Part shown: positions 115 to 13,263 of the stretch, in pieces
Position numbering within the stretch: the stretch's first letter is position 1
Layout of the letters: each line of letters opens with the position of its first letter
Assembly: GCF_053078305.1 (NCBI RefSeq)
Contig: NZ_CP166879.1
Length of the DNA stretch: 64,000 nucleotides
Direction: 5' to 3' (one strand)
Position numbers and translations under genes: made by a program
Notes under the pieces: model-generated
Seen by the model: the letters and a program-made list of their open reading frames with translations, nothing else
Told to the model about the DNA's origin: nothing
The model's database searches: none

Positions 115-1437
115 TTATTCGCTGATACGGCGATAGACAGTTGGTGTGCTTTCCGGTGCTTTATCGGCAAGTTTAATTGCCGCTTTCACCGCTTTCGCTG
201 CTTCCTGCCAGCTGTTTTCGTCTTTCGCGTGGATAACCGCCAGCGGACGCTGACCGTCTACCTGGTCGCCCAGACGCGCCATATCAGTAAAGCCGACGCT
301 GTAATCGATGGTGTCAGATGCCTGACGGCGACCGCCGCCCATTGCAACCACTGCCATCCCCAGCGCGCGGGTATCCATTTCACTGACAAAACCTTCGGTA
401 TCAGCATAGACTGCTTTCGTCAGCATCGCTGTCGGCAGATACTTCGCGTAGTTCTCAACGAAGTCGGTCGGGCCTTTTTGTGCCGCTACCATACGACCAA
501 AGACTTCTGCCGCTTTACCGTTGTCCAGCACCGCCTGCAGTTTAGCGCGCGCTTCGGCGTCATCTTGCGCCAGTTTGCCGGAAATCAGCATCTCCACACA
601 CAGCGCCATCGTGACATCAAACAGACGCGGGTTACGATACTCACCCGTCAGGAACTGCACCGCTTCACGAACTTCAACCGCGTTACCTGCACTGGAGGCC
701 AGTACCTGATTCATGTCGGTGAGCAGCGCGGTGGTGCGCACGCCAGCGCCGTTAGCCACGCCAACAATCGCTTCGGCAAGGGCTTCAGAGAGTTCGTAGG
801 TCGGCATAAACGCGCCGCTACCCACTTTCACGTCCATCACCAGCGCATCCAGACCTTCCGCCAGTTTCTTCGCCAGAATAGAGGCGGTGATCAGCGGGAT
901 GGAGTCCACGGTTGCGGTAATATCGCGGGTCGCGTAGAAACGTTTATCCGCCGGAGCCAGTGAGCTGGTCTGGCCGATAATTGCCACGCCGACGTCTTTA
1001 ATAATTTCGCGGAAACGGTTGTCATCCGGGAAAATGTCGAAGCCAGGGATGGATTCCAGTTTGTCGAGCGTACCGCCAGTATGACCGAGGCCACGACCGG
1101 AGATCATCGGAATATAGCCGCCGCAGGCTGCGACCATCGGCCCCAACATCAGCGAAGTCACATCGCCGACACCGCCGGTGGAGTGTTTATCAACAATCGG
1201 GCCATTCAGATGCAGGCTTTTCCAGTCGAGAACGGTTCCTGAATCTCGCATCGCCATGGTCAGCGAGACACGCTCAGGCATTGTCATATCGTGGAAGAAA
1301 ATGGTCATCGCGAGGGCGGCAATCTGCCCTTCGGAGATAGTGTTGTCGCGAATACCGTTGATAAAGAAACGAATTTCTTCATCGCTCAGCGCATGACCAT
1401 CACGTTTTTTACGAATAATTTCTTGTGCGAGAAACAA
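115..1437 (-). CDS. deoA: thymidine phosphorylase
   Basis: 440-aa ORF; recognised as E. coli DeoA over full length. Confidence 0.95.
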
Positions 1438-1563: not shown

Positions 1564-2343
1564 TTAGTAGCTGCTGGCGCTCTTACCGTCGCCGTGACCC
1601 AGCGCTTTCAGCAGGCTTGCCAGCAGGCTGGAAGCACCAAAGCGGTAGTGACGCGCATCAGCCCAGTCAGCACCGAACAGTTCATCTGCGATGGCGAGAT
1701 ATTTCTGCGCATCTTCCGCAGTACGCACGCCGCCCGCCGGTTTGAAACCAACGGTTTTTTCTACGCCCATATCACGGATCACTTCCATCATGATGCGCGC
1801 GCTTTCCGGCGTCGCGTTCACAGCCACTTTACCGGTAGAGGTTTTGATGAAGTCCGCACCCGCTTTGATGGAGATTTCAGACGCTTTACGGATCAGCGCT
1901 TCGTCTTTCAGTTCGCCGGTTTCGATGATCACTTTCAGCAGTACATTCGCTGCCGCGCAAGCCTCTTTACAGGCTTTCACAAGGTCAAAACCAACCTGCT
2001 CGTTACCCGCCATCAGCGCGCGGTACGGGAACACAACGTCAACTTCATCAGCACCGTAGGCGATTGCCGCACGGGTTTCTGCCAGCGCGATTTCGATGTC
2101 GTCGTTACCGTGTGGGAAGTTGGTTACCGTAGCAATACGGATTTCCGGGGTGCCCTGCTCTTTCAGTGTTTTGCGAGCAATCGGGATAAAGCGAGGATAG
2201 ATACAGATAGCGGCGGTATTGCCGACCGGGGTTTTGGCCTGATGACACAGAGCAATTACTTTCTCGTCGGTGTCGTCGTCATTCAGGGTGGTCAGGTCCA
2301 TCAATTTCAGTGCACGCAGGCTGCTTGCTTTCAGATCAGTCAT
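1564..2343 (-). CDS. deoC: deoxyribose-phosphate aldolase
   Basis: ORF 1564-2367; start taken at MTDLKASSL giving 259 aa as in K-12 DeoC. Confidence 0.95.
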
Positions 2344-2387
2344 TTCATTCTCCTGGCTTGTCGCCAATAAAATTCACCTTGCGAGTT

Positions 2388-2403
2388 TGTTAGTATTCTA
2401 ACA
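2388..2403. promoter_or_regulatory. DeoR operator O2 (deoP2) palindrome TGTTAGTATTCTAACA
   Basis: 16-bp palindrome matching DeoR operator consensus TGTTAGAA.TTCTAACA, about 45 bp upstream of deoC start. Confidence 0.7.
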
Positions 2404-2600
2404 TCTACTCCGCAACACACTTCGATATACATCACAATTAAGGAAATCTACTTACAAGTTTGCATCACTGTAATGCGATCTGGTTCAAATAATTCACTTT
2501 CAAATGAATGCGTCAGTGGTGGCAAACGCATCAGGATCAAAGTGAACATCACGAAACTTCTTACAATGGCGCATCACCTTCGGCATAAAAGGAAAAGAAG

Positions 2601-4151
2601 ATGCCCACTTCTCATGAAAATGCACTGCAACAACGTTGCCAGCAAATTGTCACCAGCCCAGTGCTTAGCCCGGAGCAGAAGCGCCATTTTCTGGCACTGG
2701 AAGCAGAAAACAATCTGCCTTACCCACAGCTTCCTGCCGAAGCCCGCCGCGCGCTGGATGAAGGTGTAATCTGCGATATGTTTGAAGGTCATGCGCCGTA
2801 CAAACCGCGCTATGTCTTACCCGATTACGCCCGTTTTCTGGCGAACGGTTCCGAATGGCTGGAGCTGGAAGGCGCGAAAGATCTTGATGACGCACTCTCT
2901 CTGCTGACCATTCTTTACCACCACGTACCGTCGGTCACATCGATGCCGGTCTACCTGGGGCAACTGGATGCGTTGTTGCAACCGTATGTTAGAATTCTAA
3001 CACAAGACGAGATCGATGTTCGAATAAAACGTTTCTGGCGTTACCTCGACAGAACCCTGCCAGACGCCTTTATGCACGCCAATATCGGCCCGTCTGATTC
3101 GCCCATTACCCGCGCGATCTTACGTGCAGACGCAGAGTTGAAGCAGGTTTCACCGAACCTGACTTTTATCTACGATCCTGAAATCACCCCTGATGACCTG
3201 CTGCTGGAAGTGGCGAAGAACATCTGTGAATGTAGCAAACCGCACATCGCCAACGGTCCGGTGCATGATAAAATTTTCACAAAAGGGGGCTACGGGATTG
3301 TGAGCTGTTACAACTCACTGCCGCTGGCGGGTGGTGGCAGCACGCTGGTACGCCTTAACCTGAAAGCCATTGTCGAGCGCAGCGAATCGCTGGATGACTT
3401 CTTTACGCGCACTCTACCGCACTACTGCCAGCAGCAGATCGCCATCATCGATGCGCGGTGTGAATTCCTCTATCAACAATCACACTTCTTTGAGAATAGC
3501 TTCCTGGTGAAAGAAGGGCTGATTAACCCTGAACGTTTTGTGCCAATGTTTGGCATGTATGGGCTGGCGGAAGCGGTTAACTTGCTGTGTGAGAAAGAAG
3601 GGATTGCCGCGCGCTACGGTAAAGAAGCCGCCGCAAATGAAGTGGGTTATCGCATCAGCGCGCAACTGGCGGAGTTTGTCGCCAATACCCCCGTGAAATA
3701 TGGCTGGCAAAAACGCGCCATGTTACACGCACAGTCGGGGATCAGTTCCGATATCGGCACCACGCCGGGCGCGCGTTTGCCGTATGGCGATGAGCCAGAT
3801 CCGATCACCCATCTGCAAACTGTCGCCCCGCATCATGCTTATTATTATTCCGGCATCAGCGACATTCTGACGCTCGACGAAACCATCAAACGTAACCCGC
3901 AGGCACTGGTACAGCTTTGCCTCGGTGCCTTTAAAGCCGGAATGCGTGAATTTACCGCCAATGTCAGCGGTAACGATCTGGTTCGCGTTACCGGTTATAT
4001 GGTGCGTTTGTCGGATTTAGAAAAATATCGCGCCGAAGGTTCACGCACCAACACCACCTGGCTGGGCGAAGAAGCCGCACGCAACACTCGTATTCTGGAA
4101 CGCCAGCCGCGCGTGATAAGCCATGAACAGCAGATGCGCTTTAGTCAGTAA
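2601..4151 (+). CDS. yjjI: glycyl-radical-enzyme-like protein (DUF3029 family), function unknown
   Basis: 516-aa ORF; C-terminal RVTGY resembles the glycine-radical motif RVxGY; followed by an activase-like gene. Confidence 0.85.
2987..3002. promoter_or_regulatory. DeoR operator O1 (deoP1) perfect palindrome TGTTAGAATTCTAACA
   Basis: Perfect 16-bp DeoR palindrome; centre-to-centre distance to O2 is 599 bp, the published O1-O2 spacing; lies inside the yjjI ORF. Confidence 0.7.
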
Positions 4152-4986
4152 GATTATCCCCTTCTCCTGCGTTGACGGGCCAGGCAGTCGTCTGGCTCTG
4201 TTTTTGCAGGGCTGCAATCTGCGCTGCAAAAACTGTCACAATCCGTGGACGATGGGACGTTGCAATGACTGTGGGGAGTGCGTGCCACAGTGTCCGCATC
4301 AGGCGTTGCAGATTGTTGACGGCAAAGTGGTGTGGAACGCTGTGGTCTGCGAGCAATGTGATACCTGCCTGAAGAGGTGTCCGCAACATGCCACGCCAAT
4401 GGCGCAATCCATGAGCGTGGATGAGGTGCTTAGCCATATCCGCAAAGCGGTGCTGTTTATTGAAGGGATAACGGTAAGCGGCGGCGAAGCCACGACCCAA
4501 CTGCCGTTTGTAGTGGCGCTGTTTACTGCCATCAAAAACGATCCGCAACTGTGCCATCTCACCTGCCTCGTGGACAGTAACGGTATGTTGAGCGAAACCG
4601 GCTGGGAAAAATTGCTCCCGGTGTGCGACGGCGCAATGCTCGATCTCAAAGCGTGGGGGAGCGAATGTCATCAACAATTAACCGGACGCGATAATCAGCA
4701 GATTAAGCGCAGCATCTGTTTGCTGGCAGAGCGCGGCAAGCTGGCGGAACTGCGTTTGCTGGTAATCCCTGGCCAGGTGGATTATTTGCAACACATCGAA
4801 GAACTGGCGGTGTTTATCAAGGGACTTGGCGATGTTCCGGTACGCCTGAACGCGTTTCATGCCCACGGCGTGTATGGCGAGGCGCAAAGCTGGGCGAGCG
4901 CCACGCCGGAAGACGTTGAGCCGTTGGCTGATGCGTTACGGGAGCGCGGGGTGAGCCGGTTAATATTTCCGGCGCTGTATTTGTGA
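4123..4986 (+). CDS. yjjW: radical-SAM glycyl-radical-enzyme activating protein with extra ferredoxin-like Cys clusters
   Basis: 287-aa ORF; CxxxCxxC radical-SAM motif (CNLRCKNC) plus two CxxCxxCxxxCP clusters; overlaps yjjI end. Confidence 0.9.
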
Positions 4987-13176: not shown

Positions 13177-13263
13177 GCGAAGGTGGCGGAATTGGTAGAC
13201 GCGCTAGCTTCAGGTGTTAGTGTTCTTACGGACGTGGGGGTTCAAGTCCCCCCCCTCGCACCA
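13177..13263 (+). tRNA. leuP: tRNA-Leu (anticodon CAG), variable-arm C-to-T variant
   Basis: Identical to flanking copies except GTGTTCTTACGG vs GTGTCCTTACGG. Confidence 0.9.

Follow-up and report, generated by a model that had tools for sequence, protein, structure and literature searches.

Promoter deoP1 and two DeoR operators within the coding sequence of the divergent gene yjjI of Escherichia coli

The deoC-yjjI locus and its DeoR operators

The stretch of DNA considered in this work (64,000 nucleotides of contig NZ_CP166879.1, assembly GCF_053078305.1; hereafter, the window) is a segment of the E. coli chromosome in reversed orientation with respect to MG1655, the MG1655 coordinate being 4,619,666 minus that of the window. 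Its deoC gene, the first of the deoCABD operon, starts with an ATG at 2343, 45 bp from operator O2 of the repressor DeoR, and is divergent from yjjI, within whose coding sequence fall the other two operators, O1 and OE, and the distal promoter of the deo operon, deoP1 (Table 1). Between positions 1564 and 4986 there are 46 substitutions and no indels with respect to MG1655, the operators being free of substitutions, and the region is found in 5,423 of the 5,426 complete E. coli genomes.

A search of all 64 kb for the 16-bp DeoR palindrome returns the two sites that the first-pass annotation had pointed out, i.e., O2 (TGTTAGTATTCTAACA, one mismatch) and O1 (TGTTAGAATTCTAACA, a perfect palindrome). 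Their start-to-start distance (2987 - 2388) is 599 bp, which is, as that annotation claimed, the published one (PMC3334521), the two operators being described elsewhere as about 600 bp apart at the tandem promoters (PMC8053113). No other 16-mer in the window has three mismatches or less, with 0.26 such sites expected from shuffled sequences; across mismatch loads there is one site with none, one with a single mismatch, none with two or three, and two with four. Both operators fit the palindrome form TGTTAGAA(T/A)(T/C)CTAACA and are identical to the published TGTTAGAA-TTCTAACA and TGTTAGAA-TACTAACA quoted in PMC5326754, O2 reading as the published TGTTAGAATACTAACA on the deo strand. On that strand O1 and O2 alike contain TGT-TAGAAT, and thus overlap the -10 hexamers of promoters P1 and P2. 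On the opposite strand O1 spans codons 129-134 (Y-V-R-I-L-T) of the 516-codon yjjI reading frame, the same codons to which it had been assigned at first.

The third operator, OE (TGATAAAATTTTCACA, four mismatches), is found a further 279 bp past O1, at a distance of 878 bp from O2; the literature locates such a third site about 300 bp upstream of O1 (PMC8053113). The first-pass annotation had expected it near 3870, where there is no DeoR-like site within five mismatches, and was thus about 600 bp off, probably by adding the 878 bp to O1 rather than to O2. The published distance between O1 and OE is 279 bp as well. The only further 16-mer of the window within four mismatches of the palindrome, besides these three operators, is TGTTAGTGTTCTTACG at 13215-13230, which probably occurs there by chance.

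The 5′ part of yjjI

The location of O1 in an annotated gene had been read in two ways, either as deoP1 transcription running antisense through the 5′ end of yjjI or as a wrongly placed yjjI start, the true one being downstream of the operator. Residues 1-155 of the protein, on which this choice depends, are conserved as judged by family models, distant relatives and fold. The full YjjI protein matches PF11230 (E=1e-219) and TIGR04040 (784 bits against a cut-off of 498.3, over residues 11-504), and residues 1-155 alone score 200.9 bits with the first of these models (E=3.4e-59, profile positions 1-134 of 485) and 229.8 bits with the second (E=4.8e-68, profile positions 1-145 of 497). An exhaustive phmmer search of 1.84 billion cluster representatives with residues 1-160 as a query matched 263 proteins, the full-length ones among which (about 490-530 amino acids, with 37-64% identity over the query) align collinearly with it, starting at most some 10 residues from their own N-termini.

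In an alignment of 22 distant YjjI relatives, conservation is 0.51 over residues 1-155 and 0.47 over residues 156-516, so that the N-terminus is no less conserved than the remainder, the opposite of the unconserved first 135 codons by which a downstream start would have been recognized. Nine of the 15 invariant columns of a 28-sequence alignment (E62, R70, Y71, P74, G83, L102, Y106, G120 and D123) precede O1. The AlphaFold model of YjjI (predicted local distance difference test, pLDDT, 91.6; predicted template modelling score, pTM, 0.91) folds residues 8-155 with confidence, pLDDT being 87-98 over residues 11-160.

A protein beginning past O1, and thus leaving deoP1 and O1 in non-coding DNA, would have to start at Met158 (3072), the first methionine after the operator, and not near codon 156 as had been noted; the in-frame Met60 and Met115 precede O1. 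That there is an ATG in frame at this codon, and that a few database entries hold shorter versions of YjjI (391-476 amino acids), is in favor of such a start. Even if true, however, it would keep OE within coding sequence, and it conflicts with the family scores of the N-terminal part taken alone, with distant full-length homologues (27-64% identity) that begin within some 10 residues of the E. coli start, with the nine invariant residues from E62 to D123, and with the confident fold of this region. Profiles, homologues, invariant residues and structure together refute the downstream start, which we consider practically untenable. The yjjI start as annotated can be off by some 10 codons at most, and the headline of the first-pass annotation, that deoP1 and O1 lie within the yjjI coding sequence, holds.

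Constraint on the shared bases and its interpretation

A scan of one genome per species gave 80 yjjI loci. In 74 of them deoC divergently adjoins yjjI-yjjW (Escherichia, Citrobacter, Salmonella, Enterobacter, Kosakonia, Kluyvera, Hafnia, Edwardsiella and others), two are too short to judge, and four, all from Proteus (L078-L081), have yjjIW without deoC within 4 kb, their upstream genes being radA, serB and smp. O1 is present at +386 and OE at +665 in every one of the 76 non-Proteus loci, each operator with zero to two changes from its E. coli sequence, and both are absent from the four Proteus loci, despite the similarity of the encoded peptides.

Synonymous sites tell the same story. From a codon alignment of 71 Enterobacteriaceae, Hafnia and Edwardsiella sequences with mutual identity below 95%, the pairwise rate of synonymous differences was obtained for 511 windows of six codons each, the gene mean being 0.447; the sequences compared are phylogenetically related, and contrasts between these rates are descriptive and not a formal test. 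OE (codons 222-228) is the window with the lowest rate of the entire gene, 0.005, followed by O1 (codons 129-134), with 0.019, and the block upstream of P1 (codons 138-146) has rates of 0.10-0.14. The 3′ end of yjjI, where it overlaps yjjW, is also among the lowest, as is a patch at codons 296-301, with 0.08. It is hard to explain otherwise that the two lowest windows fall exactly on two predefined sites. The P1 upstream block also holds, at 3024-3034, ATAAAACGTTT, one of just four runs of at least 9 nt that are conserved across yjjI.

The cost of this double use is visible in the choice of codons. Four of the eight AGA, CGA, CTA, ATA and CGG codons of yjjI (AGA131, CTA133, CGA141 and ATA142) are found within codons 131-142 (2991-3026), apparently forced upon the gene by O1 and the deoP1 upstream region. 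The peptides encoded by the operators are locally variable in distant homologues (0.30 and 0.35), where they are among the least conserved and adjoin indels, and in the AlphaFold model peptides 129-134 and 222-227 are at helix ends or in loops. The control elements thus sit in segments where the protein is permissive, and in turn dictate its codons. Wherever yjjI adjoins deoC, synonymous sites are frozen in the codons that coincide with O1, with OE and with the region upstream of P1, the protein and the regulation both being under purifying selection.

Taken together, the interpretation that we favor, with a probability of about 0.9, is that a genuine gene of the opposite strand, yjjI, shares its 5′ half with the distal half of the classical control region of deoCABD, the same bases being both codons and control sites. 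In such an arrangement, transcription from deoP1, whose extended -10 is inside O1, would start at about 2987 on the minus strand and enter deoC after about 644 nt, having crossed codons 129 to 1 of yjjI, its promoter and then deoP2. DeoR binds O1, O2 and OE and loops the intervening DNA, with repression of both P1 and P2 as a result, and is released by deoxyribose-5-phosphate, which lifts the repression, P2 being additionally under the control of CRP and CytR. On the plus strand, residues 129-134 and 222-227 of a glycyl radical enzyme resembling NrdD are encoded by the same bases. The binding and looping by DeoR, the activity of P1 and its induction by deoxyribose-5-phosphate are established in the literature (PMC8053113, PMC3334521, PMC5326754); the coordinates, the identity of the genes, the conservation of the N-terminus and the dual constraint come from this analysis.

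Three points weigh against this interpretation, or at least loosen it. The synonymous freeze over O1 cannot separate constraint by DeoR binding from constraint by the -10 of the promoter, because operator and -10 overlap. OE, with its four mismatches, is not recognizable by sequence alone, another site with as many being present at 13215, and it is convincing despite these mismatches because of the comparative, synonymous-site data. Lastly, both the predicted P1 start (about 2987) and the overlap in antisense are derived from the geometry of the promoter together with what is already established. A different objection would be that the frozen stretches are kept for reasons internal to yjjI, such as a protein motif, codon choice, mRNA structure or pausing, their likeness to DeoR sites being incidental. 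The peptides are, after all, partly conserved (Y-V-x-x-L-T and D-x-I/V-F), and yjjI has another frozen patch, at 3486-3508, with no known regulatory role. Proteus, however, makes similar peptides from other codons and without an operator, and in distant homologues conservation of these segments (0.30 and 0.35) is among the lowest of the protein. Moreover, the frozen codons include the rare AGA, CTA, CGA and ATA, which is the opposite of codon preference, and the sequences and their spacings match the experimentally defined O1 and OE. An origin of the freeze within yjjI itself is, in our judgment, very improbable.

The superimposition of deo control sites on yjjI is not in itself new. The region is identical to the known control region of E. 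coli deoCABD in its operators, the 599 bp between O1 and O2, OE a further 279 bp away, the overlap with the -10 hexamers, and the tandem CRP sites with CytR at P2. This control system has been known since the 1980s, its operators reportedly being the subject of work by Dandanell and Hammer in 1985, Valentin-Hansen and colleagues in 1986, and Amouyal and colleagues in 1989. These early papers predate the annotation of yjjI; the overlap of P1, O1 and OE with the gene is visible in genome databases, and in the literature searched we found no discussion of their location inside conserved coding sequence. What appears to be undescribed in the searchable literature is the quantified dual constraint with its Proteus control, which is an incremental addition.

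Intragenic auxiliary operators used in DNA looping are known from lacO2, inside lacZ, and galOI, inside galE. The deo case shares with them an operator within a reading frame that loops to a promoter-proximal operator hundreds of base pairs away, with codons serving both purposes. Whereas lacO2 and galOI are in the first gene of their own operon and on the same strand, however, deo has two operators and a whole promoter in an unrelated, divergent neighbor, and transcription from this promoter runs antisense to the gene that holds it. Convergent promoter pairs with transcriptional interference, and cis-antisense transcripts, are also known in enterobacteria. By its geometry deoP1 (about 2987, minus strand) resembles one half of such a pair, since it faces the putative yjjI promoter (about 2575, plus strand) with a potential overlap of about 410 nt; it differs from interference pairs in that its known purpose is the expression of deoCABD and not the production of a regulatory antisense RNA. 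As for yjjI, foreign regulatory elements are found in it only in Enterobacteriaceae, Hafnia and Edwardsiella, and not in Proteus or the distant homologues.

The locus is thus an unusually clean natural case of a promoter and two repressor operators overprinted on a conserved enzyme gene, in which the cost of overprinting can be seen (in the freeze of synonymous sites, in rare codons forced upon the gene and in the position of the elements in loops of the protein) and for which Proteus, with the same gene but with the operators missing, is a built-in control. For annotation, the yjjI start should be kept, and deoP1, O1 and OE recorded as intragenic features. Changes to yjjI codons 129-146 or 222-227 (e.g., recoding, deletion or reporter constructs) will disturb deo regulation, and induction of deo, by bringing antisense transcription across the yjjI 5′ end, could confound studies of YjjI.

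Some side observations on the same comparative data can be added. The other frozen patch of yjjI, TTCTTTGAGAATAGCTTCCTGGT (3486-3508, codons 296-302), has a synonymous rate of 0.08 against the gene mean of 0.447; it is kept in Enterobacteriaceae and not in Hafnia, Edwardsiella or Proteus, and part of it, TTTGAGAAT, is like the left half-site of DeoR (7/9), the right half being mismatched. We know of no element at this position. The distance between O1 and O2 falls into four classes in 67 Enterobacteriaceae loci (568, 589-592, 598-604 and 612 bp), which are one or more steps of about 11 bp apart. Their centers give R=0.99 for a period of 11 bp, with p of about 0.001 under a crude null, which suggests that the helical phasing of the DeoR loop is preserved across spacing classes; in Hafnia (626 bp) and Edwardsiella (675 bp) the candidates for O2 are weak and show no clear fit to these classes. 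In Proteus, yjjI-yjjW directly follows radA-serB-smp, genes that in E. coli flank the far side of the deo-yjjJ-lplA block. From this gene order, the deo block was either inserted beside yjjI in the ancestor of Enterobacteriaceae and Hafniaceae, or lost or moved in Proteus.

Table 1. Genes and control elements at the deoC-yjjI locus, in window coordinates (ORF, open reading frame; CDS, coding sequence).
Feature	Position	Strand	Evidence
deoA	115-1437	-	ORF list, RefSeq annotation
deoC CDS, gene 1 of deoCABD, target of P1 and P2	1564-2343	-	ORF list, RefSeq annotation
Predicted deoP1 leader transcript, about 644 nt, reading through P2 into deoC	2344-2987	-	P1/deoC geometry, established P1 function
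DeoR operator O2, overlapping the deoP2 extended -10 (TGT-TAGAAT, hexamer 2400->2395)	2388-2403	-	Palindrome search, published sequence, conserved in relatives
deoP2 activator/anti-activator region: CRP-1 2421-2436, CytR region between, CRP-2 2474-2489	2421-2489	-	Conserved intergenic blocks
Putative yjjI promoter: FNR-type site 2527-2540, -10 TACAAT 2563-2568, start about 2575	2527-2575	+	Intergenic conservation
yjjI CDS, 516 codons, YjjI-family glycyl radical enzyme	2601-4151	+	RefSeq E. coli annotation, profile matches, AlphaFold
DeoR operator O1, containing the deoP1 extended -10 (TGT-TAGAAT, hexamer 2999->2994)	2987-3002	-	Palindrome search, synonymous freeze
deoP1 upstream region (-25 to -51 from the predicted start): weak -35 (CGAACA/TTCGAA), A/T-rich block AAACGTTTTAT, yjjI codons 138-146	3012-3038	-	Synonymous freeze
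DeoR operator OE, 4 mismatches, yjjI codons 222-227	3266-3281		Position, synonymous freeze, kept in relatives
yjjW, radical-SAM activase, overlapping the yjjI 3′ end	4123-4986	+	Pfam Radical_SAM/Fer4 matches, RefSeq annotation

Promoters of the locus and possible control of yjjIW

If the start of deoP2 is placed 7 nt past its -10 hexamer, i.e., at a predicted position of about 2388, the conserved CRP-like sites upstream come to lie at exactly -40.5 and -93.5, which are the positions of the CRP sites in the published deoP2 geometry. The rule is thereby validated for deoP1, for which it predicts a start at about 2987. The proximal of the CRP sites, TGTGATGTATATCGAA, is listed for yjjI/deoC as a site from chromatin immunoprecipitation sequencing (ChIP-seq) of CRP (PMC4287617), and the control of deoP2 by CytR and CRP is summarized in PMC3454398.

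Because transcription from deoP1 must cross about 644 nt before reaching deoC, its transcripts would necessarily be antisense to yjjI codons 1-129, to the yjjI 5′ untranslated region and to the yjjI promoter. Of the two readings first offered for O1, the antisense one is thus the right one, on the grounds of this geometry and of the genuine yjjI N-terminus. The leader itself has little to distinguish it: no Rfam family is found in 2200-3600 at E<=1, and its minus-strand ORFs are short shadow ones, none of them convincing. A generic promoter and terminator scan missed both P1 and P2 on account of their weak -35 regions, and its few hits were at chance level; neither PMC3415461 nor PMC4782308 lists yjjI/deoC or the expected coordinates in its supplementary transcription-start data. 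Some 50 bp downstream from the start predicted for P1, and inside yjjI, there is also CGTACCGTCGGTCACA (2926-2941), reported as a CRP ChIP-seq motif within yjjI of enterotoxigenic E. coli H10407 (PMC4287617). Its synonymous rates are about 0.5-0.7, and the motif is probably not under selection, because there is no synonymous-site conservation over it.

The promoter of yjjI itself would be of the class-II FNR type. In some 70 genera or species GGATCAA is invariant 22 nt before a conserved TACAAT or TACACT, which in turn is about 33 nt before the yjjI ATG, and of the FNR-type site only the proximal half, ATCAA, is conserved. The FNR ChIP peak of yjjI would presumably be at about 2508 of the window, assuming an offset of 1,977 bp between U00096.2 and U00096.3. 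The gene is listed as bound by FNR, with its transcription start not known (PMC3688515); the promoter proposed here is consistent with the peak assigned to yjjI in that work, and its start at about 2575 may supply the missing one.

The superimposition of deo control sites on yjjI can be extended by supposing, not as an exclusive alternative to it, that yjjIW is in turn under the control of deoP1 and of the operators inside yjjI, through trapping of its promoter in the loop, roadblock, or interference from convergent transcription and antisense RNA. The geometry alone would allow this, since the putative yjjI start is between O2 and O1, within the loop, polymerase starting there must pass any DeoR bound to O1 and OE, and the yjjI promoter and deoP1 point at each other across about 410 bp; the arrangement is, in addition, kept across Enterobacteriaceae, Hafnia and Edwardsiella. 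On the other hand, the 19 papers that mention yjjI describe no link to DeoR, distant homologues of the gene are not beside deo genes, and yjjI is reported as FNR-dependent and anaerobic (PMC3688515). Such control is unlikely, in our estimation. A slimmer chance still has to be given to the speculation that yjjIW is a hidden member of the DeoR regulon, by which its anaerobic, FNR-dependent expression would be coupled to the availability of deoxynucleosides, and that the frozen stretch at 3486-3508 might belong to this arrangement as another, undescribed cis element.

A functional link between YjjI and deo was also sought in the gene neighborhoods of distant taxa, and is unsupported. The neighborhood check found no deo genes beside distant YjjI homologues, which therefore argue against an ancient link; they always adjoin an activase, their remaining neighbors being variable. 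YjjI of E. coli is like its family (PF11230, TIGR04040) in its full-length match, its RVTG motif, the adjacent gene for a radical-SAM activase and its NrdD-like fold. The glycyl radical motif VRVTGY is at residues 461-466 (RVTG at 462-465), R462 being nearly invariant, and the yjjW product matches Radical_SAM and Fer4 of Pfam. A sequence search found no solved structure of YjjI. Its AlphaFold model, compared by Foldseek, is closest to NrdD, the class III ribonucleotide reductase (E=8e-17, TMq 0.76), followed by enzymes of the PFL type, which points to an NrdD-like glycyl-radical-enzyme fold.

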